DNA from: Pseudomonadota bacterium
GTDB lineage: Archaea > Thermoplasmatota > SW-10-69-26 > JACQPN01 > JAJPHT01
Assembly: GCA_021325135.1 (NCBI GenBank)
Contig: JAJPHT010000008.1
Span: 1-53,000 of the forward strand
Length of the DNA stretch: 53,000 bases
Reading direction: 5' to 3'
A program made the translations under genes and the position numbers. How positions within the stretch are numbered: position 1 is the stretch's first letter; each line of letters begins with the position of its first letter. Of the stretch, positions 185 through 48,836 are shown one piece after another. Under the pieces are notes generated by a model that was not told the DNA's origin, did not search any database, and saw only the letters and a list, made by a program, of their open reading frames with translations.

Positions 185-1240
185 TTAGTATTCCTTCAGC
201 AGGTACTGGTCGAACACGCTCATGCGCTTCTGCCAGTCCTCGGGGTGCAGCTTCCGCGTGGCCATGGCAATGCTGGAGAGCAGCGCGTTGCCGTCCTGGG
301 GCGTGAAGGCGTAGCCCGTGACGTCCTTGCCGTTCTCGCTGACGTGCAGGCTGGGCGTGACGACGACGGTCTGGCTCAGGATGCGGCCGAAGGGGCCGTG
401 CTCGCGGGCGAAGCTGAAGACGAGGTTGGTGGCCGTCTTGTCGGTAAGGCCGACGAAGCGGTCGTTCTTGAGGAGCTTCTTGACGTCGTCCAGCGTCGTC
501 GGGCTCTTGAGGCGGAAGTGGAAGTGCGCGGTGTGCATGAACTGGGTGTTCAGCTTCATCGCGCTGCTGAAGAGGTTGACGTCCTTGTTCAGCGTGCTCT
601 TGTAGAGGTTGGCGGCGTCGGTGGCGTGGTGCGTGCCGCGGGCCTCCTTGTGCTTCTCCACGGTGGGCGCCTGGATGAACTTGGAGTCGCCCACGTCGCC
701 GGCGCGGCGGATGAGGACGAGGCGGCCCTCCTCCAGGTTCGCGCCGTCGTGGGTCAGCGCGTGGACGAGGCGGACGGTGGTGTGCGTGTTGCAGGACACC
801 ACGTGGACGTAGCGCTCCTTGGCGGGGTCGACGGCGGCGTCGTTGATGCCCAGAGCGTACATGGCGCCGAAGCCCTCCTCGCTGCCCTGCGCCATGAAGA
901 GCTTGTCGCCCTGGAGCTTGGAGTAGATGTGCTCCTTGTTCTCCAGGCCCGAGTCCTCGGGCGTGCAGTCGATGACGACGCGGGCGCGCTCCAGGGCGGC
1001 CTGCGCGGAGAGGTCGGGGGCGAGGCCGATCTTCTCGAACTCGGCCTTCTTGTCGTCCGCGACGGCGAGCTTCGCGCCGGCCTTGCGCAGCGCGTTGACC
1101 ATGGGGCGGTCCTCCTTGCGCGGGGAGTGCTTGTAGAAGGTGACCTCGTCGATGCCCAGCTCGTTGCGGTACTTCGCGAGCAGGCCGACGATGGGCTCGC
1201 CGATGGTGCCGGTGCCGACCACGTGGACGATGTTCGCCAT
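185..1240 (-). CDS. gap: Archaeal-type (type II) glyceraldehyde-3-phosphate dehydrogenase-like protein
   Basis: 351 aa; N-terminal Rossmann motif VVGTGTIG, VIDCTP, QGSE, catalytic-type VVSCNT motif, THHATD and QFMH segments typical of archaeal GAPDH; strong GC3 codon bias on this strand. Confidence 0.8.
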   Translation of the reverse strand: MANIVHVVGTGTIGEPIVGLLAKYRNELGIDEVTFYKHSPRKEDRPMVNALRKAGAKLAVADDKKAEFEKIGLAPDLSAQAALERARVVIDCTPEDSGLENKEHIYSKLQGDKLFMAQGSEEGFGAMYALGINDAAVDPAKERYVHVVSCNTHTTVRLVHALTHDGANLEEGRLVLIRRAGDVGDSKFIQAPTVEKHKEARGTHHATDAANLYKSTLNKDVNLFSSAMKLNTQFMHTAHFHFRLKSPTTLDDVKKLLKNDRFVGLTDKTATNLVFSFAREHGPFGRILSQTVVVTPSLHVSENGKDVTGYAFTPQDGNALLSSIAMATRKLHPEDWQKRMSVFDQYLLKEY

Positions 1241-1345: not shown

Positions 1346-1448
1346 GGGTCCAAAGAACGCGACGAGCGCAAAGAGCGCCAAGGTCGCCACGGCGTCTTTC
1401 GTCGTCGCGTCCTTCGCGCTCGTGGCGCTCGTCGCGTTCTTTGGACCC
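1346..1448. repeat. ~103-bp palindrome with perfect 24-bp terminal inverted repeats and internal 9-nt periodicity (MITE/REP-like)
   Basis: GGGTCCAAAGAACGCGACGAGCGC (1346-1369) is the exact reverse complement of 1425-1448; imperfect pairing continues inward to a TCTTT loop (1395-1399). Confidence 0.85.
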
Positions 1449-1470: not shown

Positions 1471-4400
1471 TCAGCGCCGGCGCCTCAGGAGCAGCGCCCC
1501 AGCGACGACCGCCAGCGCGACGAGCCCCACGCCGGGCCCAGGAAGCGCGTTCCCGGCCTTGGCGCTGAAGACGACGGCGCCTTCGGAGAGCTTCTGGTTG
1601 CCCGCGGCGTCCTGCGCCGTGACGTCCAGCGTGTAGGCGCCCGCGGAGGGGTTGAGGGGCACCTCGAAGACGCCTGCGCTCTTGCGGATGGCGTTGAGGG
1701 TCTGCACGACCTGGCCGTCCTTCTTCACGAGCACCTGGACGGCGGTGACCTTGGCGTCGGTCTCGACGCGCACGGTGGCGTCCTCCCCGGCCTTGGGCGC
1801 GCTGGGCGTGAGCGTCACGCTGCGGATGCCCGGAGGCGTGTTGTCGACGGTGAAGTTGAAGAACGCCACGTTGGGGACGTGGTAGAGGTTCTGCGCGCTC
1901 ACCATGACCTGCACCGTGCCGCTGGCGAAGCCGCTGGTGTCGAGGGTGTAGTTCCGGCCCATGTCGTAGGTCACGCCGCGCACGGTGTAGTTCGCCGACG
2001 CGATGCCCAGGGGGTCGCTGATGGCGAGCTTCACGGGGGCGCCCGTGCGGATGGTGGTCGGCTGGCCGGGGGCCAGCGCGATGGTGGGCAGGCTTCCGGG
2101 CGTGATGGTGAAGTGGGCGAGGATCTCATGCGTGTCGTTGGCGTTGGGCGTGGGCGCGTTGTCGATGGCCGCGAGGGTGACGCCGTAGGCGCCGGCCGCG
2201 GTCCAGGGCTGCGTCACGGCGTAGACGCCGTCGCTGCCGGGGAGCATGAGGAGGCTCACCACGTCGTTGGCCGGCGTCACCACGTTGGCGCGGACGCTGG
2301 AGAGGCCCGTCGCGTCGGTGATGGACGCGCGGATGGTGACGTTCTGGCCCAGGGTCGCGGTGGGCGGGTCCACGCTCACGGCGGAGATGACGGGCTTCGC
2401 GTCGTCGATGACCGTGGTGGTGGCGGTCGCGAGGACCACCGCGCCGGGGCGGAAGGTGGGGACGACGCGCACGGTGACGAGGTCGCTGGACGTGCCAGGC
2501 AGGTCCGGGATCGTCATGTCGACGCGGATGGGGATCAGCGCGAGGCGCGGCAGGTCGAGGTCCAGCGAGGTCTTGCCGACGGGGACCCAGCCGTGGGCGC
2601 TCTGGATCTCCACGTGCACGGGCTCCGAGGGCTGGTTACCCGTGTACTGGACCTGGAAGACGTTGGGCGGCTGGCTGTAGGAGATGGCCTCGCCCGGGTG
2701 GCCGTCGAGCCCCTGCGCGGGGACGAGGCGGATGGCGTTGGCGGTGCGCAAGGTCACCGCGCGCGTGGCGGCGTTGTTCGTCTCGTCGATCTCCGAGATG
2801 GCGTTGGCGGGGTCGATGGTGGCCTGGAGGACGACGGAGCCGTCGAGGCCCGTCGTGTCCCACACGAGGGGCACGTCGCGCAGCGCGCCCGCGCGCAGGT
2901 CCGAGGGGCCCAGGGTGACGTTGCCCACGAGGGTCTGCGCGCCGTCCTTCACGGCGACGACGCCCACGGTGACCGGGCCCGCGGGCGGGTGGTTGCCCTG
3001 GTTGCCCACGCGCAGCGTGAGCGCGACGGGGTCGCCCGCGTAGGGCGTCGTGGTGTTGAGGTCGATGCGCGTGACGAAGAGGTCGGGGCCGCTGATGCGC
3101 CCTTCGACGACGGTCTCCTTGGGGCGGCCGTGGTCGCCGCTGGGGGAGAAGGTGAGGGTGAGGCGCGAGATGTCGCCCACCTCGCCGGCCGCGGGCGCGC
3201 GCAGCGTCACGACGACGTCGCCCTCCGAGGCGCCCGTCCCCGAGGAGCCCACGGGGTTGAGCACGAGGGAGGTGGGGCTCGCGGTGGCGCCCCAGCTGGC
3301 GTCGGAGTTGTCCAGCTTCACGCTGAAGTTGCTCGCCTCGTTGCCCACGTTGCGGACGTGCACGGTGTAGGTCGTCGTGTTGCCGGGGTCCACGAACTGG
3401 GAGGAGGGCGTCGCGGTCAGCTCCGCGTTGGGGCCCTGGATGACGCTGACCTTGGCCTCCATGGGGGCCGCCACGGGGCGCAGCGCGGGGCGGTCCTGCG
3501 GGTCGGTGGAGGAGACGTTGACGAAGAAGTCCGCCAGCGTGTCGGGGGGCGTGTTGGGCGGGACCGTGGCGTTGAGGGAGAACGCCGCGGAGCCGAAGGG
3601 GGGCAGCGTCAGCGTGGTGTTGGAGACGGACCACGTCCAGCCGGGCGGCTGGTGGGCCACGGCGATGGTGAGGTTCTCGGGGCCGTTGCCCGGGTTGCTG
3701 ACGCTCATGCTGAAGCTCGCCGTGTCGCCGGGCACCACGAGCTGCAGGGGGTTGACCAGCTGCGCGCTGAGGCCGTACTGCTGGTCCAGGAGCAGCGTGA
3801 ACGCGACGCGCGCGGGCGTCGTCGCGTCGGTGGAGGTGCTCTGCACGAGGTACGAGACGGTGTAGTACCCCTTGGTCGCGTTCGCGGGGGGCGAGAGCGT
3901 GGCCGTCGCGGTGGCGTGCTGGCCCGCGTCCAGGTCGACGGGGGCGGGGATGGACGTGGAGCCGAGCCACGAGTCGTTGATGGTGGAGTGGTCGCGGTCC
4001 AGCGTGATGGCGTACTGGTCGTGGGCGTTGCCGGTGTTGGCGATCACGAGAGGCAGGCTCGTGACGTTGCCGATGCTGGCGCCGGTGAAGTTGTCCTTGA
4101 GCGTCGTCGTCACGTTGAGGCCGTGGCGCGTCGCGACGAGGAAGGGCAGGAGCGTGGAGGCCTTGCACTCGCCCGCGTCGTTGAGCGAGTCGGGGCAGTC
4201 CTGCGTGCGGTCGCTGCGGACGGTGGCGTCGGTCTGCGAGACCCACGCGACGGTGAGGTTGGGCGCGTTGCCCATGTTGAAGCTGATCCCCGCCGCCTCC
4301 GTGGAGGGGACGACCACGGTCACGGTCACGGTCTTGGAGTCGCCGGGGTTGACGTAGACGGGCGGCGCGGGCGAGTAGCTCACGAGGTAGTGCGAGGGGT

Positions 4401-5184
4401 CGAAGCCGCCGGGCCACGCGATCTGGGGCACGAACGTGTCGGCCTGGTTGCCGGCGTTGGTGAGGCGGTACGTGGACGCGATGGCCTGGCCGGGCTGCGC
4501 GGTGCAGGCGGCGGCCGTCACGGCGGGCGCGTCCTTGCAGCGCGCGGCCGCGTCCGCGGGCTTCCACGGGTCGTTGACGAAGGTGACGACGTCGCTGCTG
4601 GGCCGCGGGGGCGCGGGGCGGTCCGGGTAGGAGAAGACCTTGGGCGTCTTGGCGACGATGGTGAAGTACGCGACGTTGTTGTCGGTGGCCGCGTCGGGGC
4701 CGGGGCCCACGTTCCCGAGGCCCGTGGGGTCGGTGCGCGGGCACCCGTTGTCCTGGCTCACGCAGGTGTTCTCGATCTTGGTGCCGATGTAGATGGCCCC
4801 GTGGTTGGAGTACGCCATGGCAGGCGTGACGTTCCACGAGAAGGTCTTCTCCTGCTCGACGTTGGGGGCAAGGCCGGGCGCGAACTGCACGTAGCACGCG
4901 GGGGGCTGCGTGTTGTCGCGGCCGCTTCCCGCGGTGGTGAGGCAGTCGGAGGAGTGCGTGACGTCGTTCCAGCCGACGAAGACGGTGAAGGTGGGCGACT
5001 GCGCGGTGCCCACGTTGCGGACCTTGACGTGGACCGTCGTGGTCTGGTTCACGATGGGGTTGTCCACGGTGAAGGACGTGACGACGAGGTCGGAGCCGGT
5101 GCCCTGCGCGTGGGCCGTGAGGGGGAGCGAGCTGAGGGCCATGAGGGCCACGAAGGCGACGGCGACGGTCCTATTCGGCAGCAT
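1471..5184 (-). CDS. Large cell-surface protein (signal peptide, CARDB, NEW3-like Ig repeats, C-terminal PGF-CTERM-like anchor)
   Basis: 1237 aa; signal peptide ending AHA-Q; CARDB-like SDLVV...VRNVG and PDLFV...ISEIDETNN; repeated NxGNxxD motifs; tail LPGPG + hydrophobic stretch + RRRR; many N-x-S/T sequons. Confidence 0.9.
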   Translation of the reverse strand: MLPNRTVAVAFVALMALSSLPLTAHAQGTGSDLVVTSFTVDNPIVNQTTTVHVKVRNVGTAQSPTFTVFVGWNDVTHSSDCLTTAGSGRDNTQPPACYVQFAPGLAPNVEQEKTFSWNVTPAMAYSNHGAIYIGTKIENTCVSQDNGCPRTDPTGLGNVGPGPDAATDNNVAYFTIVAKTPKVFSYPDRPAPPRPSSDVVTFVNDPWKPADAAARCKDAPAVTAAACTAQPGQAIASTYRLTNAGNQADTFVPQIAWPGGFDPSHYLVSYSPAPPVYVNPGDSKTVTVTVVVPSTEAAGISFNMGNAPNLTVAWVSQTDATVRSDRTQDCPDSLNDAGECKASTLLPFLVATRHGLNVTTTLKDNFTGASIGNVTSLPLVIANTGNAHDQYAITLDRDHSTINDSWLGSTSIPAPVDLDAGQHATATATLSPPANATKGYYTVSYLVQSTSTDATTPARVAFTLLLDQQYGLSAQLVNPLQLVVPGDTASFSMSVSNPGNGPENLTIAVAHQPPGWTWSVSNTTLTLPPFGSAAFSLNATVPPNTPPDTLADFFVNVSSTDPQDRPALRPVAAPMEAKVSVIQGPNAELTATPSSQFVDPGNTTTYTVHVRNVGNEASNFSVKLDNSDASWGATASPTSLVLNPVGSSGTGASEGDVVVTLRAPAAGEVGDISRLTLTFSPSGDHGRPKETVVEGRISGPDLFVTRIDLNTTTPYAGDPVALTLRVGNQGNHPPAGPVTVGVVAVKDGAQTLVGNVTLGPSDLRAGALRDVPLVWDTTGLDGSVVLQATIDPANAISEIDETNNAATRAVTLRTANAIRLVPAQGLDGHPGEAISYSQPPNVFQVQYTGNQPSEPVHVEIQSAHGWVPVGKTSLDLDLPRLALIPIRVDMTIPDLPGTSSDLVTVRVVPTFRPGAVVLATATTTVIDDAKPVISAVSVDPPTATLGQNVTIRASITDATGLSSVRANVVTPANDVVSLLMLPGSDGVYAVTQPWTAAGAYGVTLAAIDNAPTPNANDTHEILAHFTITPGSLPTIALAPGQPTTIRTGAPVKLAISDPLGIASANYTVRGVTYDMGRNYTLDTSGFASGTVQVMVSAQNLYHVPNVAFFNFTVDNTPPGIRSVTLTPSAPKAGEDATVRVETDAKVTAVQVLVKKDGQVVQTLNAIRKSAGVFEVPLNPSAGAYTLDVTAQDAAGNQKLSEGAVVFSAKAGNALPGPGVGLVALAVVAGALLLRRRR

Positions 5185-5854
5185 CGGAAGCGGGCTCCTG
5201 GGAAGACGAGGTCGACGGGCGGCGCCACGGGGGGCGCGCGCCGCGGAAGAGGACGAGGACGCTCCCCGCGCCCATGAGGGCGAGGGAGGCGAGGGCCACG
5301 CCCAGGGGGGACGTGGTCTCCAGCGCGGCGCGCCACTGGGCGGGGCCCGCGAGGGAGAGGAGGAAGGCGAGCCCCACGCCCGCGCCCGCCAGCGCCAGGG
5401 CGAGGCCGAGGCGCCCCGCCAGCGTGGCGAGGGCCTCGTCGGTCACGCGGTTGAGGTGGTCCTCGGGGAGGCCGTCGGACTCCACGGCGCGGTGAGCGGC
5501 CTCGTAGCGGCCCATCATGTGGACCAGCTCGCCGTAGGCCAGCGCGGCGCCCGCGAAGGCGAGCCCCACGGCGTAGGCGAGGAGGCCGGGCGATAGCATT
5601 CCGCCGGGCAGCGCGGCGAGGACGAGGAGGAGGACCGCGGCGAGGGCCAGGGGCGGCGACCGGCGCAGGACGCCCACGACGCCCGCGAAGGCGCCCGCGG
5701 CGAGGAGGGCGTAGGAGAGCGCGGCGGGGACCTCGACGCCGAAGAGGCGGTCCGCGCCCTGGCGCGAGGCGGCGAAGGCCAGCGCGGAGGCCGCGGCGAG
5801 GGCGCCGTAGGCGATGCCCTGGAGGCGGCGCTCGTGGGGGAAGGGCTTGCTCAT
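5171..5854 (-). CDS. Multi-pass membrane protein associated with MoxR/DUF58 cluster
   Basis: 227 aa from ATG at 5854 (MSKPFPHERR), which overlaps the upstream stop as ATGA; GGGAGG SD upstream; about 6 hydrophobic segments. The ORF-track extension to 7096 is spurious. Confidence 0.8.
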   Translation of the reverse strand: MSKPFPHERRLQGIAYGALAAASALAFAASRQGADRLFGVEVPAALSYALLAAGAFAGVVGVLRRSPPLALAAVLLLVLAALPGGMLSPGLLAYAVGLAFAGAALAYGELVHMMGRYEAAHRAVESDGLPEDHLNRVTDEALATLAGRLGLALALAGAGVGLAFLLSLAGPAQWRAALETTSPLGVALASLALMGAGSVLVLFRGARPPWRRPSTSSSQEPASDAAE

Positions 5855-7098
5855 TGGACCAGCAGCCTCCCCTTCTCCATGACGGCGGCGAGGCTCTGGT
5901 CGGGCTCGAAGTCGATGACCACCGCGCCGTAGCCGCGAAGCTCGTTGAGCGTGGCCTGGCGCTCGGCGAGGAGCGCTTCGGCGAAGACGGGCTCCAGGCC
6001 CGGAAGGCTCGTGGGGCGGGGGGAGACGACGGCCACGAGCATGTCGTTGGCCAGGAGGATGCTGGCGGCCTCCACCACGGTGCCGTCGTCGAGCATGGGC
6101 GAGACGAGGAGGACGGGCGTCCTCGGCTTGAGGGTGGGGAGCGTCTGGCTGACGGCGAGGCGCAGCGGCAGGGCGCCGGTGGGCTGCAGCTCCGCCAGCG
6201 TCTCCAGGAGGAGGGGGATCATGCGGTCGGCGGGCTGCGGCTCGATCTCGCGCACGCCCTCGCCGTAGAGGATGACGCGCGGCTGGTCCTTGCGGGAGAA
6301 GACGAGCTCGAAGAGGCTCGCGGCGGCGCGGGCGACCAGGACGCGGCCGCTCTCGCTCTCCTTGCCGGCCGCGGTGATGGCGCGGCCGTCCACGAACACC
6401 GCGACCTCCGCGGCGGTGGTGCGCATCATCTGGTTGACCATCATCTTGCCCGAGCGCGCGCTGGCCTTCCAGTTGATGGCGCGCATGGTGTCGCCGGGGA
6501 CGTACTCGCGCAGGGCGAAGAAGTCGAAGCCGTCGCCGGGGCGGTTCACCTGGTGGTCGCCCATGAGCGGCATGGGGAGGTTTGATATCAGGGCCGCCTT
6601 GCGGAGGTCCTCGCGGCGCGGCAGGACCCAGAAGGTGCTGGTGCCCTCCACGGACCTCTCCTCGTAGAAGAGGCCGAAGGGGTCCTCCAGGCGCAGGTCG
6701 GTGGGGCCGATCTCGTGGACGCCGAGAAGGGGCGCCTGCATCGTGTAGCGAAGCTCGTCGACGCCGCCCGAGGGGAGCGCCACGAAGTCGTAGGCGGCGC
6801 CGCCGGCGACCTTGATCTGGCGGGGGAGGCGGTCGCGGACCTCCAGGAAGAGGAGGCGCTTGCTGGGGTTGCGCACGACGACGCGCGCCTCGGTGGACTC
6901 GCCTTCGGTGACGCGCTGGAGGTCCAGGTGGCGCGTGGCGGTGACCTCCTCGCTGCCGCGGAAGAGCCAGCGGTTGACCAGGACGAAGGCGAGCGCGACC
7001 GTGCCGGCGGCGAGCGCAGCGGGGCTGCGCGCGGCGACGCCCAGGACCGCAAGCGCGATCCCGAGGCCGGTCAACAGGCTCGACTTCCTCGTCCACAT
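5851..7098 (-). CDS. DUF58 family (vWA-like) MoxR partner with N-terminal TM segments
   Basis: 415 aa from ATG 7098 (MWTRKSS); N-terminal hydrophobic helices; EDPFGLF; hallmark GDGFDFFALREYVPGDTMRAINWKASAR; directly downstream of moxR. Confidence 0.92.
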   Translation of the reverse strand: MWTRKSSLLTGLGIALAVLGVAARSPAALAAGTVALAFVLVNRWLFRGSEEVTATRHLDLQRVTEGESTEARVVVRNPSKRLLFLEVRDRLPRQIKVAGGAAYDFVALPSGGVDELRYTMQAPLLGVHEIGPTDLRLEDPFGLFYEERSVEGTSTFWVLPRREDLRKAALISNLPMPLMGDHQVNRPGDGFDFFALREYVPGDTMRAINWKASARSGKMMVNQMMRTTAAEVAVFVDGRAITAAGKESESGRVLVARAAASLFELVFSRKDQPRVILYGEGVREIEPQPADRMIPLLLETLAELQPTGALPLRLAVSQTLPTLKPRTPVLLVSPMLDDGTVVEAASILLANDMLVAVVSPRPTSLPGLEPVFAEALLAERQATLNELRGYGAVVIDFEPDQSLAAVMEKGRLLVQ

Positions 7099-7100
7099 GG

Positions 7101-8132
7101 TCAGACCTTGGGCACGGGCGTGCTGTCGAGGATGCCCTGCATGATGTCGGACGCCTTGACGCCCTTGATGCGGGGCTCCGGCTTCAGGATGACCCTGTGC
7201 GCGAGGACGGGCACCATGAGGCGCTTCACGTCGTCGGGGACGACGTAGTCGCGCCCGTGGAGCGCGGCCCAGCCGCGGCTGAGCTTGAAGAGGTTCTGCG
7301 TGCCGCGGGGCGAGGAGCCCGCCACGAGCTGCGGGTGCCTGCGCGTGGCGTCGATGAGCGTCGCGATGTAGCGGATCAATTCGTCCGCGACGTGGACGTT
7401 CTCGATGGCCTTCTGCATGGCGACGATCTGCTCGGCGCTGCTCACGGGCTTCACGTCGAAGTCGTCCTTGCCGCGCTTGGCGCGGCGGATGAGGATCTCC
7501 GCCTCCTCGTCCAGCGAGGGGTAGCCCATGCTGAGCTTCATGGCGAAGCGGTCCATCTGCGCCTCGGGGAGCGGGTACGTGCCGGCCTGCTCCACGGGGT
7601 TCTGCGTCGCCATGACGACGAAGGGCTTGGGGAGCTTCTGCGTGAAGCCCTCCACGGTGACCTGCTTCTCGGCCATGGCCTCCAGCATGGCGGACTGCGT
7701 CTTGGGCGAGGCGCGGTTGATCTCGTCCGCCAGCAGGTAGTTGGTGAAGATGGGGCCGGGGCGGAAGTCGAACTCGTGCGTCCTCTGGTTGAGGATGAAC
7801 GTGCCGTTGATGTCGCTGGGCAGAAGGTCGGGCGTGAACTGCACGCGCTTGAAGTCGCAGCCCGACGCGCGGGCCAGCGCGGCGGCGAGCACGGACTTGC
7901 CCAGGCCGGGCATGTCCTCCAGCAGGACGTGGCTGCCTTCGGTGAAGATGGCCAGCACCACGAGCTTGAGCTGGTCCTTCTTGCCGACGATGACGCGGCC
8001 CACCTCGTCGGTGAGGGCGGTGCCCGTGACGCCGACCTGGCGGATGGCCTCGCGGATCTTCGGGTCGCGGGGCGGGCCTTGCGCGGCAGGGCCCGCGGGC
8101 GTGATGCGGGTGGTCGTCTCGGGCGGGGTCAT
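7101..8132 (-). CDS. moxR: MoxR family AAA+ ATPase
   Basis: 343 aa; HVLLEDMPGLGKS (Walker A), RVQFTPDLLPSDI, LLADEINRASPKTQSAMLEAM (Walker B), ATQNPVEQAGTYPLPEAQMDRF, GRDYVVPDDVK. Confidence 0.97.
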   Translation of the reverse strand: MTPPETTTRITPAGPAAQGPPRDPKIREAIRQVGVTGTALTDEVGRVIVGKKDQLKLVVLAIFTEGSHVLLEDMPGLGKSVLAAALARASGCDFKRVQFTPDLLPSDINGTFILNQRTHEFDFRPGPIFTNYLLADEINRASPKTQSAMLEAMAEKQVTVEGFTQKLPKPFVVMATQNPVEQAGTYPLPEAQMDRFAMKLSMGYPSLDEEAEILIRRAKRGKDDFDVKPVSSAEQIVAMQKAIENVHVADELIRYIATLIDATRRHPQLVAGSSPRGTQNLFKLSRGWAALHGRDYVVPDDVKRLMVPVLAHRVILKPEPRIKGVKASDIMQGILDSTPVPKV

Positions 8133-9355
8133 GGGGGAGCCTCAGCTGCGTAGAGCTTGAAGATGGGAGAAGGGTCGGCGCGGAGCGTGCCGGCCGCCGC
8201 GTCCGCCAGGAGGCGATCGCCGCAGACGGCAAGCAGCTGCCCGGCGGTCATCGCCGCCACCTGCTCCAAGGGGATATTATGCTTTTCGCTGATGCGGCGG
8301 CGGGCGAGCCGCTGCGCGCGATCGAGGTCGGGGCGCACGGCCTCGGGGGCGGGGACCTCGTGGTCCGCGGAGTGCGCGTGGTGGCTCCAGTCCTGCGTCG
8401 CGCGCGTGAGCAGGACGCCCACGACGGTCGCGACGAGGAGGAGCGCGAGGAGCGCGTAGGTGACGAGGCCGCCGGAGGTGGCGCGGCCCAGCGCGCGGGC
8501 GGCGTCGTCGAAGGGCGCCAGGGGCGCGGCGGGCGCGTGGCGGCTCTCGTCCACGAGGATCGTGCCGCCGTTGCCCACGAGGCCGGTGGCCAGCGCGCGG
8601 ACGTAGGCGGCGTTCTCGTAGTCGGGCAGGTCCACCTGCTGGTTCATGAAGAGGCCCGTGTCGGAGACCAGGACCAGCGTGCCGGCGCCCAGGTGCGTCC
8701 GCACGAGGAGCGGGAAGGGCCCCGCAGGGTCCGCGCGGTCGATCTCGCCGTTGCCGTTCACGTCGCGATAGCTCCCCTGGGGGAAGGAGGAGCCCGCGCT
8801 GGAGGCGGCCAGCACGTCGTAGGCGCCCACGCGGTCCGGCAGCGGCACGAGCGCGGTGGGCGCGTTGAGGAGGAGGCGATAGCTGCGCCCATCGAGGGTG
8901 CTGTTGGTCACGACGAGCCGAGGGTCGCCGCGGTGGTTGCTGGAGTCCAGCACGCGGCTGCTGTCGAAGGCGAAGCCCGCGTCCTGCGCGATGGCCGTGG
9001 CGAAGCCGCCCTCGTCGGCGAGGATGACGCTGCCCCCCGCGCGCAGGAACGCCGCGACGGCGTCGGCCTCGCTGGCGTCGTAGCGCCGCTCGGCGCCCAG
9101 CACCAGGAGCAGTGTGCGCGAGGGGTCCTTCACGTCGGAGAGGAGCGTGGGCGTGGAGACGACGGCCTTGACCGTGGCGCCGGTGAGGCCAAGCTCGTCC
9201 TTGAGGTGCGAGGCGTCCTCGGCGCCGTCCTCATAGGCGGAGAGGTGCCGCTGCGCGCCGAAGAGGAGGAAGGGCGCGACGGCGACGAGGGCGAGGAGGG
9301 CCACGAGGGCGGCCGCGACGAGGCCCCGCTGCCGGGGGTCCTGAAGGAGCTTCAC
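8129..9355 (-). CDS. DUF4350-like membrane-anchored protein
   Basis: 408 aa; GTG start overlapping upstream stop (GTGA); N-terminal TM; FLRAGGSVILADE, GAGTLVLVSDTGLFMN and ILVDESRH motifs typical of DUF4350/GATase-like fold; second TM near C-terminus; canonical position before moxR. Confidence 0.8.
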   Translation of the reverse strand: MKLLQDPRQRGLVAAALVALLALVAVAPFLLFGAQRHLSAYEDGAEDASHLKDELGLTGATVKAVVSTPTLLSDVKDPSRTLLLVLGAERRYDASEADAVAAFLRAGGSVILADEGGFATAIAQDAGFAFDSSRVLDSSNHRGDPRLVVTNSTLDGRSYRLLLNAPTALVPLPDRVGAYDVLAASSAGSSFPQGSYRDVNGNGEIDRADPAGPFPLLVRTHLGAGTLVLVSDTGLFMNQQVDLPDYENAAYVRALATGLVGNGGTILVDESRHAPAAPLAPFDDAARALGRATSGGLVTYALLALLLVATVVGVLLTRATQDWSHHAHSADHEVPAPEAVRPDLDRAQRLARRRISEKHNIPLEQVAAMTAGQLLAVCGDRLLADAAAGTLRADPSPIFKLYAAEAPP

Positions 9356-12300
9356 GCGCCCACCCCCGGGGAGGGCGCCGCGGCCTTGCGGCCCAGGAGC
9401 GCGTCAAGCTCGTTGCGCACGGCGGCGAGGGACTCCACGGCGCGGTCGCGCTCCTCGCTGCCGATGGCGTGGTCGGAGTAGCGCGCCTCCTCGAAGAGGC
9501 GGATCAGCTCGCGCATCGCGACGGCGCCCACGGGGAGCGCCTTGCGGACGCCGGCCGCGAACTCGCGGGGCGTCTCGCTCTCCTTCTCGGCGTAGCCGTA
9601 GCGGGCCAGGTGCGCGCTGAAGCGGCGGTACGCCAGGAAGATGGTGCCCTGGTACTCGTTGCCCGCGAGCAGCTCCTGGATGGCCTCCTGGAGGATCTCG
9701 CGCGCCTCGCCGAGCTGGCGGCGGCGCAGCATGGCGACGGCGATGACGCCCGCGACGAGCACGAGCGCGACGAGGACGAGGAGGATGAGCCCCGCGTAGG
9801 CGACGGGCGTGCCGGGGCCCACGACGGCGATGGCCTGGCTGCGGTACTCCGTCCCCAGCACGTCGCTGCCGCCGCGCACGGTGATGGCGAAGGCGGCGTC
9901 GCCCGTGAGCGGCGTGACCGAGGCGAGGGTCGCCTTGCCGGCCACGTCGGTCTGGCCCACGACGGGGGCGCTCCCCTTGCCCAGCGCGTAGACGAAGGTG
10001 GTGTTGCGCAGCGGCTGGCCCTTGTCGTCCAGCAGCGTGATATCACCCGCGACGGAGAAGCCGCGCACGGCGAGGGCGGGGAGGTGGACGTCCACCTTGG
10101 GGCGCACCTTGACGACGACGTCCAGCGGCACGGAGAGCGCGTCGTAGCGCGCGTCGCCGCTGGCGTTGAGCCAGAGCGTGCTGGCGCCGCGGGGCGCGTC
10201 GGCGGGCACGCTGAGCGTCCCCGCGACGCGGCCGGCGTGGACGGGGAGCTTGCCCAGGTCGAGGCCCGCGAGGCTCGCCGTGAGCGTGGCGTCCACGGGC
10301 GCGCCCTGGTCGTCGGCGAGCGTGCCCGCGAGGGCCGCCGGCTCGCCGCGCACCAGCGGGGCGAGGCTCGCAAGCTCCAGCGTGAGGGGGCTGCGCACGG
10401 ACCAGGGCGCGGTGGCGTTGGCGCCCGCGATGGCGTCGGTGCCGGGGTAGCTCGCGGTGGCGTTGACGGGGCCCAGCGCGAAGCCCGCGGGGAGGGGCCG
10501 CTGGAGGAGGAAGGAGCCGTTGCGCGCGGTCCGCGCCTCGCCCAGGTCCGCGCCGCCCACGCGCACGCGCACGGCCGCGGCGGGGATGGGGTGCCCCTCG
10601 TCGTCCAGGAGGACGCCGCTGGCGGCCACGAGCCCGCGCGTGGCGCGCTGCGGGTCCAGCCTCAGCGTGGAGCCTTGGAGCACCGCGACGCTCGCGGAGG
10701 CGGAGGAGCCCTGGTAGAGGGAGTTGGAGCGCGGCGCGTAGACGAGGGCGACCTGGCCGAGGCTCGCGCGCTCGGTGCGGTTGGTCTGCACGAGGAAGGT
10801 GAGGTTGCCCGTGTCGTCCGTGACGGCGGTGCCCTGCTTCTCGCCGCGCCACGAGACGGCGACGGCCTGGCGAGCGACGGGGGCGCCCGCGTCGTCGAGC
10901 ACGGTGGCGCTGACGCTGAACGCCCCGCCGCGGACGAGGCTGAAGGGCGTCGGGCCCAGCGTGAGCGTCGTCGCGCTGGTCACGGTGGCGGTGGTGAGGT
11001 TGCTGGTGTCGCCGTGGTCGCGGTCGCCCGCGTAGGTGACGTTCACCGTGGAGGTGCCCAGGGGGAGCGCGTTGAGCGGGACCGCGATGGCAAAGGCTCC
11101 GGAGTCGTCGGTCTGCGCGAAGCCCAGGCGCCCCTTCTCGCCCGTGGCGACGACCTGGCCCAGGATGCCGTCGCCCTCGTTGTCCACGAGGCGGCCACGC
11201 AGCGTGGTGTCCAGCGAGCGGGGGCCCGTGAGGCTCGTGAGGTCGACGATTTCGGAGGTGCGCTTCACCGCCAGGGGCAGGTCGATCTCCGAGGGCGAGG
11301 AGACGGCGTCGCCCGCGAAGCGCGCCTGCACGCTCTGGGGGCCCGCGCTGAGGCTCCCCGGGATGGGGAAGGAGAGGTTGAACCGGCCCGTGGCGTCGGT
11401 GGTGGCGGTCTGGTCGAGGCCGCCCAGGAGGATGCGCACCGGGGCGTTGGGGACGGGCGTCCCGGAGACGACGCTGCCGTCGACGAGCGTCACCTCCGCG
11501 GTGGAGAGCGTGCCGGCGACGGAGACGAGGTCCCCCACGGTGCCTCCCGGCGCGGAGAGCGCGGCCTGGATGGCGGTGGGGCTGCGCACGTCGATGGCGA
11601 ACTCCCGCGCGACGCTGGTGAGGTTGGCGTCCGTGGAGTCGAAGCGCGCGGAGAGGATGTAGCGGCCCGGCTGGCGCGCCGAGATGGGCACGTGGAGGCT
11701 GGTGAGGTTGAGGTGCCCCGAGCGGTCCGTGGTCGCGCGCTGCGTGATGGCCGTGGGCGCGCCGTTCCAGGTGAACGTGACGGGCTCCTCCAGCGCGCCG
11801 CCGCCCGCGTCGGTCAGGCGCAGGTCGCCCTGGAGCGTGCCGCCGTTCTCCACGACGCCCGCGACGGTGGTGTCCAGGCGCGTCGCGCTGTGGACGACGA
11901 TGGGGAGGGGCGCGCTGGCGGCGAACGCGGTGGCGTGCACAGGGGTGGACGCGCCGCTCACGGTCGCGGTGGCGGTGAGGTAGGTGGGCGAGCTCACGCC
12001 CGCGGTGGCGCTGGTGTTGTAGACCCAGACGACCAGCGCGTTGGGCGCGCCCGCGGTGGCGGCGCCGGTGGCGACGCGGGAGGGGTCGAAGGGGAGCGAC
12101 ACCGCGCCCTGGGTCGCGCCCAGGAGCGTGAGCCCCGGCGCGGGGATCGCGACGGTCTGGTCCGCGGTGAGGTTCGCGACGATGCGGAACGAGCCGTTGG
12201 CGGCGGTGAAGCCCGCGCCCACGATGGCCGCGGGGTCCGCGCCGAAGGCGGAGACGAGCACGGTGCGGTTGGCCGCGGGCCGGTCCGCGCCGGTGGAGTC

Positions 12301-35900: not shown

Positions 35901-38900
35901 GGATGGCGGCGTAGAGTCCGCCGTCCAGCTTGTGCTTCAGCGCGGCGGCGTAGGCGGCCTCGCGCTCGTGGGGGCAGTCGGTGGGCGTGCACGCGCCTTC
36001 GACGTTGCCCGCGCGGTCCTCGGAGATGGCGACGAAGTAGGACGTGGGCGTGCTGGTGGGCGAGACGTCGATGGAGGTGACGTCGGGGCCGAAGTCCTTC
36101 TGGCCCGGCGCGAGGGGCTTGTCGGGGCTGGCGTGGGGCGCGGCCCAGTTGGCGGGGCTGCGCAGGTCGCCCGAGCCGGTGTATTCCAGGATGCGCGTGC
36201 TGCGCACGCCGGAGCCGCGCTCGTCCACGATCCAGCCCAGCGGGATGGCGGAGCCGTTGAGGAAGGGCTGGCCCACGACGGCGCGCGTGGCGAAGACGGT
36301 CTTGGGGGGCGTGGCGTCCACGAGCACCGAGCGCGTGGCGGTGGTGGGCAGCGTGGCCTTGTCCGCCGCGACGACGCGCAGCGTGTAGACGCCGTCGGGG
36401 AGGACCTGGCCCGCGTCGCCGCGGCCGTCCCAGCCGGCGCTGAACCGCGCGTAGGGGGCGCGGGCCGCGTCGCGGTAGTAGCTCACGTGGCCCGACTGGA
36501 GGACGAAGCTGCTGGCGGCGTCGGGGAGGACGCCCTCGGCGGGGCGGCCCGCGAAGAGGGTGCGCACGACGGCGCCGCTGGCGTCCACGACCTGCATGGT
36601 CACGTTGGTGGAGGGCTCGGTGGGCACGCGCACGTCGAGGCGGCTCTGCGTCGTGTCGTCGCCGTTCTGCGACTCGCTCACGACGAAGTAGGAGATGGGC
36701 GTCCCGAGGTCGAAGGTGCTGCCCAGCGTGTTCTCCACGGGCTGGCGCACCTTCTGGTCGAGGATCGCGTTGTCCAGGAGGTCCGTGAGGTCGAGGATCT
36801 GCTCGCCGCCGATGCCGTTGACGACGGGGACCCGCACGTCGTTGGGGTCGAGCCTCTGGTCCTGGAGCGGGTTGCCCGGGACGGGCAGGGTCGACAGGGG
36901 CAGCGTCTCCACGGGGATCGCGGCGATCTCGGTCGCGATGGCGGCCTGCGCCTGGCGCATCGCGCTGTCGAAGGGGCCTTCGACGTCGCCGCACACGTTG
37001 GCGGTGGGGACGCAGGTGCCGGCGAGGGTCTGCTGCACGCTGAGGTTGGGCAGCGACTCCACGATCTCCAGCTTCAGCGAGTAGCCGGAGGGGATGTCGA
37101 CGCCCAGGCCGTCGGGGGTGGGCTGGATGCCAAGCTCGCGCAGCGCGGGGGAGTCGTTGAGGTCGAGCCAGAAGTCCTGGAAGGCCGGCGTGGGCGTGAG
37201 GCTGGGGTACGTCGTCTGGTTGACGGTCCCCAGCTCGGCGCGCGCGGGGGCCAGGTCGTTGTCGATGCCGGCGCCCTGGCTGTCCACGGCGTTGCCGGGG
37301 GAGGGCGCGGGCGAGGCGCCGTTGGCGTAGATGGGGCACACCGGCGTGACGCTGCACGCCTCGGCGCGCGCGAGGCCGGCCAGCGCGGTGCCGGGGCCGA
37401 GGCTCGCGGCGCTGGCGATCTGGTCGCGCACGGGCGTGAGGAAGGGCTGCGCGGGGCCGGGGAGGCTGTCCGCGAGGCGGTCGACGCGCGTGTCGAACGT
37501 CTGGTCCGCGAGAAAGACCTTCTCGCCGCCCACGCTGGCGTCGCCGCCGGTGGAGTTGACGAGGCCGATGCGGATGTGCGTGGCGTAGTCGGTGATCAGC
37601 GGGATGAGGCCCGTGTGCTGCGCGAGGTGGACGTGGAAGGCGTCCTTGGCGACAATGGTCATGTCGCCCGCGAGGCGCGAGGTCTGCGCGCTGTACTTCT
37701 TGTCCTCGCCCGAGGACTCGGTGACGTAGCCGCCCGCCGCGCTGCGCGAGGGCGTCGTCGTCAGCGTGGGCGTGCCCGACGAGGAGGGGAGGTAGAAGGG
37801 CAGCAGGCTGCAGAGCCGGTCCACCGCGGGGTCGGGGACGCACGGGATGGTGGCGTTGGCGCCGGAGGGGCGCCAGCCCATGAGGGCCGCGAGGCGCTCC
37901 TCGTCGGCGTCGTGGGAGACGCTGTAGTTGGCGACGAGGCGCTCCTCGCCGGGCGCCGCGCCAAGGGGAGTGAGGATGCCGTCGGCGGCGCCCTGGAAGC
38001 GCGGCGCGACGTCCAGGTCCACCACGGGGCGGTTGCTCACGACGGAGGTCGCGTGGCCGTGGTCGACGACGCCCGCGCCGGTGGGCGGGATGTCGTAGAA
38101 CGCGATGCTGGACGCCTTCTCGCCCCCCTCGGAGAGGGAGAGGCTGATGGCGGCGCGGGCGCGCAGGTCCACGATGCCGTCGCGCAGCTGGGTGGTGTCG
38201 AAGGGCAGCACGACGTCCTCCACCTGGCGCGCGCCGCTGGCGAGCTTCGACGCGACGGGCACGCCGTCCACGAGGAAGTCCACGCCGTCCACGAAGAGGT
38301 CGTTCTTCGCGGCGGAGGCGCCCGGCGCGGCCTGCGCGGGGAGGCCGTTGCGGGTGAGGTCGACGTGCGCGCGCAGGCACACGGTGCCGTTGAGCACGGG
38401 CGCGTGCAGCGTGGCGGTGTAGTCGCGGGTGGGGACGAGGGGCGCGTCGTCGGCGCAGCCCTTCAGGGGATCAAGAGCGCCCGCGAGGGGGTCCCACCGC
38501 GTGATGGTGAGCGTCGTGCGGCCATCGCCGCCCAGGAGCGAGGTGCTCAGGAGGCCCGCGAGGCGGTCGCGCACGAGGTTGTCCGTGACGTCGTGGTCGA
38601 CGCCGATGCCGCCCTGGCTGGACGAGGGCTCGCTGCCGCTGGCCCACGCGACGCCGTTGTGCGGCGGGGGCGCGGGGGAGTTGGGGTCGCTGGGGAGGAC
38701 CGCGCACGCGACCGCGCCGGGGCAGAACGTCCGCGTCGCGATGGTGTAGAGGTCGTTGCCCGCGAGGTCGAGGAAGGTGGCCGTCGCGTTGGCGTGGGCG
38801 GGCACGTAGCCGTCGTCCGCGAAGCCGCCGGGCGTGAGGTAGCGATCGTCGCCGTCGCTCTCCAGGAAGACCGCGACGCCGTTGTGGCTGGCCGCGCCCT

Positions 38901-41900
38901 GGGAGGCGTCGCCCGCCTGGTACGTGTCGCTGCCGCCGTTGTCCACGAGGAGCGAAAGCCCGCCGTAGTCCGCGAAGGACTGCGAGCGCGCGCCCGAGGT
39001 CATCACGCCGTCGCTGCCGGCGGAGCCGAGGTTGGCGAGGATGCCGACGCCCGCCACCGAGGCGGCCTGCGTCAATTCGGGGACGTGGGCCGCGAGGGGC
39101 GCGGACGCGTTCTGGCCAAGCTGCGCGAGCTGGATCGTGGCCCACTGCGCCATCTCGGGCGAGGGGTCGCCATCCGGCGCCGCGCCGGTCGCGCTGAAGG
39201 CGCTCTCCTGGTCGGTGGTGCCGGCGGGGTAGACGAAGTCGCTCTGCGTCGCGGCCTCGTGATAGCTCATGCGCACCGCCACGTCGCGGTCGAGGTACTG
39301 CGCGTCCGTGCACGAGGGCGTCGTGGGGTCCAGGGGGTCGCAGTAGTGGAAGCCCTGCGAGTCGTAGGTGAAGCCGAAGGCGAGGCTGTCCGCCTGGAGG
39401 CCGCGGCGCAGGGGGCGCTGGAGCTCGGCGAAGAAGCGGCCGTCGACCACGCGGCAATTGGCGCGGCCCTTCACGGCGTCGTTGGGGTCGTTGGAGACCC
39501 ACGCCCCGTTGGCCTGCGCGGCGGAGCGCACGACGTTGCACGTCCCGTCGGGGTTGAACCCGAGGACGATGCGCTCCAGGCTCGTGCGGCCCAGCGCGGC
39601 GTCGTAGGGGCGGAGCGTGGCGCCCGCGTTGATGTCGATCGTCAGGCTGTCGCCGTTGGCGCCCGCGTAGGTGGCGGGGTCGGAGAGGCCCATGGAGCTG
39701 CGCGTGGGGCCGTCCACCGCGACGTAGAGGTTGCGCTCGTCGTTGCCGAACGCGACGCGGAAGGGCGCCTGCTGGCGCGCGTCCTGGAGGCTCGTGAAGG
39801 GGAGCACGAGGGGCGCGGCCACGCTGGCCGAGGAGAGGTTCAGGGTGACGTTCCACTCGGACTCGTTGCCGTAGTTGAGGTTCGCGTCCACGAGGGGCGC
39901 GCGGGGGAGCCACGGCGAGCCGTAGGAGTCGGTGAGGGTCCTGCCCACGCCGTAGGCGTCGGCGCCGCCCGCGTCCACGAGGACGCCCACGCTGAAGAAG
40001 CCGGCGCCCTGCGCGAGGCTGCGGTCGGCGCTGTGCGTGCTGGCGCCGCTGCCCGCGTCGAAGAGGAGGCTCACGGGGTAGAGCGTGAGCGTGGGGCGCG
40101 TGCAGGAGAGCGCGCTGCACGCGGCGAGGGGGCTCGCGGGGGGCGCGCCGCTGGCGAGGACCTCGCCCACGAAGCCGCCGCCCGTGTTCTGATAGCTGTT
40201 CTTGCCGCCCAGGTCCACGATGAGCGCGTAGTCGGTGGCGTTGTACGTCGTGTCGCCCAGGCCGCCGATGGCGAGGCGCGCGGCGGGGAAGTCCAGGAGC
40301 ATGCCGTTGGGGTCGGTGCCCGCGGGCGAGTCGCTGCCGCTCACGGCCGCGAGGAGCGCGTTGGGGTCCTTCGCGTCGGTGTCCAGGTGGACGCCCACGT
40401 CGGCGTAGAGGTGGATGCCGGAGTCGCCGTTCTGGAGGGGCGAGTCGGCGCGCTGCACGGTGAGGCGGTCCTCGCGGTCCGCGCGCTGCTGGTAGGCGCG
40501 CAGGACGGGGTCGAACGCGCTGTAGGAGTCGAAGCCGCCCGCGTCCACGAGGAGGCCCACGCCAGGCTCGGCCGCGCGGCCGCTGCCGGTGTTGGCCGCC
40601 GCGCTGGGGTTGAAGGCCTCGCCCAGGGGCGCGCCCTGGCTCACGACGCCGCCGGCCTTGTACGCGTCGTTGCCGCCCAGGTCCACGAGGGCGCCCACGG
40701 CGCGGCCGCCGCCCACGCCCTGGGCGTCGATGCCGGTGGCGGTGTAGAAGTCGGACGTGGAGGCGTCGCCCGCGAGGAGGACGCCCACGGCGTCGGGGCC
40801 CTGCTGGCAGCCGCCCGCGAAGTTGCTGGTGGAGAGCATGTCGCAGCCGCTGGGGAGGTCCGAGCCGTTGGCCGACGCCAGGGGGAAGCCGCGGGCGAAG
40901 CCCTGGCTGTTGGAGCCCGCGGTGAAGACGTTGAGGCCCGGGTCGCTGCCCAGGTCGAAGAGGAGGCCGGGCACGGCGCGGCGGTCCGCGGAGTCCTTGC
41001 CGGGGAGGCGGCCGTCGCCGTTGGGGAGACCCGTGGCGCCGTTGAGGCCCGTGCCGTAGCCGGCCAGCGAGGCGCCCTGGGAGAGGTTGCCCGCGGTGTA
41101 GCGGTCGAAGGCGCCCGCGAGGTCCAGGAGGACGCCGCCCACGGCGCCCTGGCTCACGTCGCCCGCACGGTAGACGTCCGAGCCCGCGGTGTCCACGAGC
41201 ACGCCGTACATGGAGCCTTGCGTATAGCTCACCGAGGGCGTGTTGTACGAGTCGCAGCCGCAGTCGCCCGCCTGGGGGTCCTGCACGGTGCCCGTGGGGA
41301 TCGTCATGGCGGGGTCGACGTTGAGCGTGAGCGTGGGCGCGAGGAACGACTGCCTCAGGCTCACGGGGGAGGACTTGTCGGTGGCGTCGTCGCCGGGCGC
41401 GGTCACGATGGGGGTGGCGCCGCCGGCCACGCCGAAGAAGCGGTCGTTGCCGCCGAGGTCGATGGCGACGAGGTAGTCCACCGAGTAATTGGTGGCGACG
41501 GAGTCGCCCACGGCGAGGATGCCCGCGGGGAGGCGGAAGGCGTAGGCGTCGCTGCTGCCGGGGCTCGTGCCGGCGGGGGGCGTGGAGGCGGTGCCGCTGC
41601 CGGTGGCGTTGGGGCCGAAGGTGGCGGAGGAGCCGACGCAGTTCGCGCCGTCGAGGTTGGCCTGGCTGGGGAGGCCCGTGCTGGAGGAGCCGCCCACGAC
41701 GCGGGGCCCGGAGTCGTCGACGATGCTGGTGTTGAGGTGCACGGTGCCCAGGCACGCGCCGCTCACGCTGCCCAGGTCGTTGATGGGCAGGCGCAGGTCG
41801 ATGATCTTGTCCGAGCCCTTGGGCGTGCCCTGGGGCGCGTCGTCGCTGAGGGGCCCGCCGTTGCCGTTCACGGCGTTGCCCTCCAGGGGGAGGTTGAGCG

Positions 41901-48530: not shown

Positions 48531-48595
48531 CGATATCACTCCACGGGGTGTTTAAGGTTGTCGGATATCCGTCACCGGGCCGGGATTCGATATCG
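48531..48595 (-). promoter_or_regulatory. RHH-gene promoter bracketed by three GATATC palindromes
   Basis: CGATATCA 48531-48538, GGATATCC 48563-48570 and CGATATCG 48588-48595 surround the minus-strand CTTAAA box. Confidence 0.65.
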
Positions 48596-48638
48596 CTTGC
48601 TGCGGCAAGGCGGTGTCTGCTCCCCATTTATGCGCTCG

Positions 48639-48769: not shown

Positions 48770-48836
48770 GCAAGGCGCCCCACTCGAAAACGCAACGGGC
48801 GAAATGATCAAAAACGGCCATCGGTTTGCCCGGCCC

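Follow-up and report, generated by a model that had tools for sequence, protein, structure and literature searches.

What does a membrane module built around a MoxR ATPase do in the company of five giant surface proteins? The question is raised by bases 1–53000 of contig C14 (hereafter the window, the whole 53-kb stretch analyzed; GC content 70–75%), which belongs to a Thermoplasmatota genome (G000) of 3.77 Mb in 51 contigs. The window carries nine minus-strand open reading frames (ORFs) without internal stops, encoding proteins of 4007, 4189, 1365, 2303, 408, 343, 415, 227, and 1237 amino acids (aa; P0001 to P0009), with a total of 14,494 aa over 43,476 bases. The locus DNA is present in soil and mine metagenomes. 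An earlier reading made from the DNA letters alone (the sequence-only reading) had presented the locus as a candidate undescribed archaeal system. This claim did not survive, because the neighborhood has already been predicted, both as an archaeal complex for secretion or membrane remodeling (PMC5898192) and as a MoxR-vWA-transglutaminase-like operon (PMC3495828). The locus is a giant, multiplied form of a predicted, functionally unsolved module. With a probability of roughly one half, we propose that this module is a membrane platform on which a DUF58-docked MoxR works through cytoplasmic tails in the assembly, anchoring, or remodeling of a giant surface coat.

The nine genes, from upstream to downstream, are as follows.

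32923..44946, minus strand: P0001, 4007-aa surface giant (Pfam, repeats, transmembrane (TM) segments; full-length orthologues in G001 and G002)
20357..32926, minus strand: P0002, 4189-aa surface giant (Pfam; orthologues in G001, G002, and G004)
16263..20360, minus strand: P0003, 1365-aa surface protein (Pfam, structure model; homologues in 10 related loci)
9352..16263, minus strand: P0004, 2303-aa module giant with a DUF4129 tail (Pfam, TM and motif scans)
8129..9355, minus strand: P0005, DUF4350 protein of the arCOG01314 type (Pfam, TM prediction)
7101..8132, minus strand: P0006, MoxR-type AAA+ ATPase (Pfam AAA_3 and AAA_lid_2)
5851..7098, minus strand: P0007, DUF58 adaptor (Pfam, structure model)
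5171..5854, minus strand: P0008, 227-aa polytopic membrane protein (hydrophobic segments)
1471..5184, minus strand: P0009, 1237-aa surface protein (Pfam; orthologues in G001, G002, and G004)

Since GC-rich DNA gives long ORFs on either strand, and very long ORFs were found on both strands of the window (73% GC DNA), the coding strand was checked. The G + C content at third codon positions (GC3) was 0.946–0.987 across the nine minus-strand frames, and the antisense ORFs carried the same excess at codon position 1. GC3, Pfam domains, and orthologues agree that the nine minus-strand frames are coding and are not chance ORFs. The chosen start codons are supported by tblastn alignments with genome G002, which begin at residue 1 in all nine proteins.

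The co-orientation, lengths, and junctions of the nine genes were borne out by translation and coordinates. GTGA start/stop overlaps lie at 32923–32926, 20357–20360, and 9352–9355, a TGATG junction joins the P0003 and P0004 genes at 16261–16265, and ATGA junctions occur at 8129–8132 and 5851–5854. P0008 and P0009 share a 14-nt overlap (5171–5184), and P0006 and P0007 are separated by a 2-nt gap (7099–7100). Shine–Dalgarno (SD)-like motifs, claimed by the sequence-only reading for most genes, are clear as purine runs (GAGGAGG, GGAGGG, AGGAGG, GGGGAGG, and CAGGAG) 7–17 nt upstream of six of the nine starts, including the TTG start of P0001 with its GAGGAGG, and are weak ahead of P0005, P0006, and P0007. 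The nine-gene 43.5-kb unit is real and conserved, and it is predicted to be a single-transcript operon. Coupled translation with synthesis in near-stoichiometric amounts, as put forward by the sequence-only reading, would be a possibility.

Conservation was evident from related genomes. By tblastn, same-genus genomes were found to keep all nine genes, both in their order and in their tight junctions; the gene order is intact up to the contig end in G004, and the last four genes lie on a short contig in G003. The flanks recur in same-genus genomes as well, with a GAPDH-like gene downstream and a divergent gene for a 571-aa secreted protein upstream. The comparison was extended to G007, G011, and 20 further loci taken around DUF4350 matches; counts are given for these 20 and for six closer loci. 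Directly upstream of DUF4350, a large DUF4129-tailed ORF is present at five of the six closer loci. Of the 20 further loci, 11 have such an ORF of 1089–2556 aa, and one more has a 2091-aa ORF at this position without a tail match. Overall, a DUF4129-tailed protein of >1000 aa immediately precedes DUF4350 in 16–17 of 26 related loci, and these loci include phylum-level relatives with 38–54% GC. A P0003-like gene is found upstream of the P0004-like (DUF4129-tailed) ORF in 10 related loci. An alternative module order, DUF4350–DUF58–MoxR, also occurs.

That the giants and the MoxR/DUF58/DUF4350/DUF4129 core form a real conserved unit is thus upheld by the same order in same-genus genomes and by recurrence in relatives. 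The expectation that the giants accompany the MoxR core in relatives stood in part: relatives within the taxonomic order and class have homologous large genes, arranged likewise, but 8 of the 20 further loci have the module without large neighbors. These eight loci, and the finding of full-length homologues of P0001 and P0002 only within the genus (diverged forms occur as paralogues), would fit a situation in which the four non-module giants merely neighbor the module without a shared function. We regard this as very improbable, because the same order with start/stop overlaps is kept in a paralogous cluster on contig C27 and in G011, G009 (L040), G010 (L052), and G017 (L057).

The ATPase at the center of the module, P0006, matched AAA_3 with 208 bits and AAA_lid_2 with 81 bits, and a PDB search returned 2r44 (E value, 6e-75). 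Its Walker A (PGLGKS) and Walker B (LLADE) motifs are both readable in the sequence. The start of P0006 overlaps the stop of the DUF4350 gene (P0005), and the DUF58 gene adjoins P0006. A single AAA_3-type AAA+ module with a neighboring DUF58 gene is thus a feature that P0006 shares with the DUF58-linked (MRP) subfamily of MoxR (Snider and Houry, 2006, cited in PMC12067865).

The structure of P0007 was modeled on 22 homologues with a mean predicted local distance difference test score (pLDDT) of 84.9. The model consists of a TM hairpin (residues 4–45), an immunoglobulin (Ig)-like beta-sandwich (53–159), and a vWA-like alpha/beta domain (231–413), the last of which matched the vWA domains of Rpn10, Ku80, ITIH1, and CLCA1 in structure comparison. 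The canonical DxSxS motif of the metal ion–dependent adhesion site (MIDAS) is absent from P0007; the position reads D237-G-R239-A-I241, with D invariant and R kept in at least 90% of the 22 homologues. The TM hairpin suggests that DUF58 lies in the cytoplasm, where MoxR and the tails with DUF4129 and of the DUF4350 protein are placed as well.

P0005 matched PF14258 with 56.3 bits (cut-off, 30.4) and has hydrophobic segments at residues 12–30 (TM or signal) and 297–315 (TM). It is predicted to expose its DUF4350 domain outside the cell and to leave a cytoplasmic tail of approximately 90 aa after the second segment. PDB sequence searches with the DUF58 and DUF4350 proteins gave chance-level matches only. 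P0008 has about four to six hydrophobic segments and matched no Pfam family (E value up to 5) or NCBIfam family; its language-model (Atlas) leads were all below 0.9. An ORF with five to eight TM segments directly follows DUF58 in 14/17 loci, and an iterative profile search ties six of these ORFs to P0008. P0008 is a member of the module, and its position there is conserved.

These membrane proteins bear on the proposal that the locus encodes a dedicated secretion system (Makarova et al., 2015), in which the giants would leave the cell through a conduit made of the DUF4350 protein, the polytopic protein, and DUF58, energized or gated by MoxR. The published arCOG01314 prediction with its GldG-like DUF4350 points this way (PMC5898192). 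So do the weak ABC_transp_aux matches of P0005 and its paralogue on C27, the constancy of the 5–8-TM neighbor, and the co-encoded, cargo-like giants. However, ordinary signal-like N-termini on all five giants suggest Sec export, the sole polytopic protein is small (227 aa), and DUF58 is cytoplasmic in the present model rather than secreted. MoxR has no known role as a motor of translocation, and the module is also found with small DUF4129 proteins. We consider a secretion system unlikely.

The giant that belongs to the module itself, P0004, has an N-terminal TM segment, ten TSP3-type DxDxDGxxD motifs, and CarboxypepD_reg, MG4, and Ig-like repeats. A TM segment at residues 2160–2178 is followed by a DUF4129 domain (PF13559, 58.3 bits; residues 2212–2280, bases 9427–9633) that is predicted to be cytoplasmic. 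The ten TSP3-type motifs fit calcium binding by P0004, in agreement with the calcium-stabilized scaffold imagined by the sequence-only reading. The link across the membrane that it had proposed is matched by the predicted topology, which places MoxR, DUF58, and the DUF4129 tail inside and the DUF4350 domain and the giants outside. A PDB sequence search with P0004 gave no matches.

Distant homologues of the P0004 tail are proteins of 2500–3000 aa with TSP3, Transglut_core, Ig/MG repeats, a TM segment, and DUF4129. Two homologues, P0031 and P0038, carry Transglut_core in a P0004-like architecture, and in P0031 this core sits in the long stretch before the last TM segment, a region predicted to be extracellular in P0004. 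None of the nine proteins matched the transglutaminase core PF01841 at E values up to 0.01, and the sole PF01841 match in the source genome lies on C42. A hidden transglutaminase in P0004 was considered and rejected, since no core was detected. From these distant homologues, P0004 can be placed in a giant TgpA-like architecture as a member without the transglutaminase.

A second published proposal is a membrane-proximal system for ATP-dependent processing or quality control (Zhang and Aravind, 2012), in which DUF58 would recruit substrates, MoxR would unfold them, and a transglutaminase-like peptidase would cleave them, leading here to turnover or maturation of the anchors of the giants. The published MoxR-vWA-TGL prediction (PMC3495828), the Transglut_core of P0031 and P0038, and the protein with transglutaminase and DUF4129 domains beside MoxR on C42 are in its favor. 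With no transglutaminase-like core detected in P0004 or the other operon genes, and with the core of P0031 in a predicted-outside region away from MoxR, we consider such a role unlikely, and a shade more so than the export conduit.

P0004 also has the topology of a receptor, and together with its calcium-binding repeats this could suggest outside-in signaling, in which the ectodomain detects contact or calcium and the DUF4129 tail switches MoxR and DUF58 onto other cytoplasmic targets. In a bacterial parallel, the kinase of the PFNA cluster phosphorylates its MoxR (PMC8430577). The operon, however, contains no kinase, response regulator, or transcription factor, and the nearest regulator is an ArsR-type protein encoded 2.3 kb upstream, on the opposite strand. 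Sensing or adhesion signaling is accordingly the least probable of the alternatives, and we give it very little weight.

The remaining four giants share the general features of exported surface proteins, with long beta-sandwich stretches and, at the C-terminus, a TM segment that ends in a basic tail. All five giants (P0001–P0004 and P0009) have a signal-like N-terminal segment, a C-terminal membrane anchor, and an acidic composition. N-glycosylation sequons occur at two to three times the shuffled expectation in all five, which agrees with the glycosylated scaffold of the sequence-only reading. At its N-terminus, P0001 has a signal-like segment and a helical region; 13 DxGGxDxY-type repeats span residues 740–2067, and FlgD_ig/Big/fn3 domains and a C-terminal TM segment with a basic tail complete the protein. 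P0002 has a signal-like N-terminus, two CARDB domains, NPCBM_assoc, and a weak MAM-like match, and its C-terminus runs from PGF through a TM segment to a basic tail, with only sub-threshold Loki-CTERM and Heimdall-CTERM matches. PDB sequence searches with P0001 and P0002 returned fn3/CARDB-type matches only.

P0003 begins with a 600-aa beta-sandwich array of unassigned family, followed by three NPCBM_assoc domains, Ig_VWA7, CARDB, and a C-terminal TM segment. The model obtained for the first 625 aa was of poor quality (pLDDT 60.7), with matches to generic beta-sandwich arrays only. P0009 has a signal-like N-terminus, two CARDB domains, NPCBM_assoc/Ig-like domains, and a C-terminal TM segment with an RRRR tail. 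Matches to CARDB, NPCBM_assoc, Ig_VWA7, and choice-of-anchor T are spread over P0002, P0003, and P0009. Among the sorting-signal models, GC_trans_RRR (MYXO-CTERM) was passed by P0009 (16.6 bits; cut-off, 15.85), P0003 gave sub-threshold matches only, and P0001 gave none. The genome encodes an ArtA (archaeosortase A) homologue on C36 (148.5 bits; cut-off, 75), remote from every MoxR locus. Lectin-like domains in the giants are weakly indicated, by one sub-threshold MAM-like Pfam match and by Atlas leads to MAM/Cleaved_Adhesin clusters. A role in adhesion, prey capture, or contact, given as an example by the sequence-only reading, would be speculative.

Proteins of this size may pose a problem before export, and MoxR and DUF58 could hold or unfold the long precursors at the membrane in a translocation-competent state, as reported for MoxR1 and RipA of Mycobacterium tuberculosis (cited in PMC12067865). 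Precursors of 4000 aa plausibly need such help. Yet this role would leave the conserved extracellular DUF4350 domain and the DUF4129 tail unexplained, and the module is equally conserved beside proteins of 300–1000 aa. A pre-export chaperone is thus quite improbable.

The module is repeated elsewhere in the source genome, which has six MoxR genes. Five of the six adjoin a DUF4129-tailed protein, four of them Pfam-positive and the one on C19 inferred from the P0004 alignment. A second full cluster lies at C27:121136–153846, where a 1871-aa DUF4129-tailed TSP3 protein, DUF4350, DUF58, and MoxR are accompanied by four upstream ORFs of 1430–3266 aa in the same relative order as in the window. At C19:5203–17694, a P0004-like gene for 2073 aa stands with DUF4350, MoxR, DUF58, and a CARDB protein. 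A P0001/2/3-like trio occupies C6:80888–103841 near the contig end. Including the window, the clusters of giants and module amount to two to three paralogous sets and approximately 3% of the genome DNA.

Smaller relatives of the module were also seen. An open frame of 1083 aa that combines Transglut_core and DUF4129 adjoins MoxR at C42:43421–47517, and C15:223480–226928 holds a DUF4129–MoxR–DUF58 trio.

Across a phylum sample of 121 genomes, in which related genomes are not independent and the counts are descriptive only, DUF4129 was present in 79 and AAA_3 in 85, with near-identical presence family by family. Manual reading of the two match lists gave at least 50 DUF4129–AAA_3 pairs within approximately 4 kb. 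Among the control genomes, Haloferax volcanii matched both families. Most DUF4129 domains of this sample reside in open frames of >1000 aa, the largest being 4726 aa, and the module also occurs beside small DUF4129 proteins (300–1000 aa).

Gene content, order, and conservation, the domain folds, and the predicted topology are the observations from which a mechanism can be proposed. In this mechanism, the module would consist of P0004 with its DUF4129 tail, the DUF4350 protein, the 6-TM protein P0008, the membrane-tethered DUF58, and the soluble MoxR. The other four giants would be exported via signal peptides, anchored C-terminally by TM or sorting-type tails, and N-glycosylated, and these four would jointly make up a large proteinaceous coat or adhesive layer around the cell. 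DUF58 would recruit the MoxR ring to the membrane, where ATP hydrolysis would act on the cytoplasmic tails of the DUF4129 and DUF4350 proteins and thereby lead to assembly, anchoring, or remodeling of an extracellular complex that is glycosylated and calcium-binding in at least one component. The module would then be a platform for assembly and maintenance and not a transport channel. The physical contacts, the direction of energy use, and the status of the four other giants as clients of the module are what we infer.

Several lines of evidence led us to prefer this assembly platform. The first is topology, namely the TM hairpin of DUF58, the TM segment of P0004 followed by DUF4129, and the TM segment of the DUF4350 protein followed by its tail. 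The tight, conserved order of the nine genes and the paralogous C27 cluster with the same internal order argue for it, as do the wide occurrence of DUF4129-tailed giants before DUF4350, the co-presence of DUF4129 and AAA_3 in the phylum, and the DUF4129-tailed proteins adjoining 5/6 MoxR genes. The match of the DUF58 model to vWA domains, together with the signals, anchors, and enriched sequons of the giants, is consistent with it, and MoxR/vWA assembly chaperones and MoxR1-RipA provide published precedents (PMC12067865).

Other findings weigh against the assembly platform. MoxR was not detected in the fetched flanking DNA of five clusters, G011 (L028), G024 (L041), G035 (L044), G013 (L047), and G037 (L056), all of which have DUF4350 and DUF58, and three of which (G011, G013, and G037) also have a DUF4129-tailed giant; the ATPase may therefore be dispensable, or shared or supplied in trans. 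As P0007 lacks the canonical MIDAS, the usual metal-mediated binding of clients may not apply. At the end of its contig, the C6 trio is followed by unrelated small ORFs, and giants may therefore also occur without the module at their side. Families f11 and f28 have DUF4129 giants of 2700–3000 aa in every genome that are not adjacent to MoxR (e.g., G054:C1:270973 and 937847) and are transglutaminase-bearing where checked. Finally, our literature search found no publication with experiments on the archaeal module.

A bolder form of the assembly platform would be an ATP-driven inside-out actuator, in which the MoxR ring on the MIDAS-less DUF58 pulls the DUF4129 tail, so that a calcium-stiffened apparatus of several megadaltons, built from the five giants, changes its conformation or its extension. 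In archaea, such a device would correspond to machinery of the integrin or gliding-adhesin type, and this lineage would have two or three paralogous sets of it in approximately 3% of its genome. We consider it improbable.

The surroundings of the nine-gene unit contain the following features.

44947..45399: intergenic region between P0001 and the divergent secreted-protein gene, putative promoter region
45400–47115, plus strand: divergent 571-aa gene with a signal-like N-terminus, no Pfam family
47258–50216, plus strand: ArsR-type helix-turn-helix regulator, DUF4383 membrane protein, and beta-eliminating lyase (248 bits)
1346..1448: near-perfect palindrome of 103 nt with 49-nt arms, 23 nt past the P0009 stop
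185–1240, minus strand: GAPDH-like gene downstream of the operon

The operon promoter presumably lies in 44947..45399. When AT-rich octamers were scanned for, no TATA-like box came up within 300 nt upstream of P0001; the window has seven such octamers, four of them inside the nine-gene unit. One of these, CATAATATC (coding strand) at 8273–8281, is located inside the end of P0005, approximately 140 nt before moxR begins. This octamer might act as an internal promoter of the moxR–DUF58 part but is too weak to call. A sigma-70/terminator scan, whose models are ill-suited to archaea, gave nothing above shuffled expectation.

The palindrome at 1346–1448 (−99 kcal/mol; z, −10.8) has at least 30 copies in the genome, with 84–98% identity and spread across many contigs. 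It looks like a repetitive extragenic palindromic (REP)- or miniature inverted-repeat transposable element (MITE)-like element, and the transcript may have its 3′ end there. Its interpretation as an operon-specific terminator was rejected, as it is a dispersed genomic repeat. The divergent 571-aa gene is kept upstream of the operon in G001 and G002, with two tandem copies in G002, and a functional link to the operon is possible.

Few unexplained membrane systems of archaea and bacteria are as widespread as the MoxR/DUF58/DUF4350/DUF4129 module, and tgpA, a relative, is an essential gene of Pseudomonas aeruginosa (PMC3507681). Here, the module is joined to its presumptive clients: a surface protein of 2303 aa carries the DUF4129 tail, another four giants are co-encoded, and this arrangement recurs in paralogues and across the taxonomic order. 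This provides a concrete, testable hypothesis for the module, namely surface-coat biogenesis or remodeling, and suggests how the wall-less Thermoplasmatota may build an outer layer. No new category is opened, as a link of this kind was predicted in 2012–2015. What is new are the paralogous clusters, the DUF4129-tailed giant before DUF4350 up to phylum level, the 5–8-TM follower of DUF58, the MIDAS-less DUF58 model, and the occasional absence of MoxR in cis.

Comparison with known systems places the locus among several partial likenesses. MoxR ATPases with vWA partners are regarded as assembly chaperones, and in M. tuberculosis the envelope enzyme RipA reportedly depends on MoxR1 for its export (reviewed in PMC12067865). 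The MoxR belongs to the DUF58-linked subfamily in both cases, and MoxR1 acts on an exported cell-envelope protein. Its client, however, is a small Tat-exported peptidoglycan hydrolase, and the system has no DUF4350/DUF4129 membrane partner and no giants. In the bifidobacterial PFNA cluster (pkb2-fn3-aaa-atp-duf58-tgm), for which operon transcription was shown in one strain, the gene for a large secreted surface protein of the FN3 type immediately precedes those for MoxR, DUF58, and a transglutaminase-like membrane protein (PMC8430577). It differs in being bacterial, in having a Ser/Thr kinase and one surface protein instead of five, and in that no DUF4350 is mentioned (PMC8430577).

Zhang and Aravind (2012) predicted the MoxR-vWA-TGL (YebA-type) operon to be a membrane-proximal degradation system (PMC3495828), and PA2875-PA2874-tgpA (PA2873) of P. 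aeruginosa are co-transcribed (PMC3507681). As at the present locus, MoxR and DUF58/vWA genes adjoin a membrane protein that ends in DUF4129 after its last TM segment, here P0004. We take PA2875 to be the MoxR, PA2874 the DUF58 protein, and the end of TgpA the DUF4129 domain. Unlike these operons, the present locus has in P0004 a protein of 2303 aa with calcium-binding and Ig-like repeats and without a detectable transglutaminase core, and it adds DUF4350, the polytopic TM protein, and four further giants.

A close counterpart is the arCOG01314 (DUF4350) neighborhood of Makarova, Galperin and Koonin (2015), with its MoxR ATPase, Ig-vWA protein, S-layer-like Ig proteins, and membrane proteins, called a predicted novel secretion or membrane-remodeling complex (PMC5898192). 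The proteins described in the paper, which names the TON_1832 cluster of Thermococcus, are of ordinary size, and its available part mentions no DUF4129-tailed partner or giants of 1200–4200 aa. The vWA protein is placed outside the cell there, whereas it is cytoplasmic via its TM hairpin in the present model. The COG4743/PF07760 membrane proteins (two or four TM segments) of that complex were not found here, and a different 5–8-TM family stands in their place. The two systems have in common a DUF4350 protein with an N-terminal signal, a large outside domain, and a single C-terminal TM segment, as well as an adjacent MoxR/GvpN-family AAA+ ATPase (COG0714). They also share a protein with an N-terminal Ig-like and a C-terminal vWA domain, here DUF58, and neighboring S-layer-like Ig-domain proteins and small membrane proteins in one predicted operon (PMC5898192).

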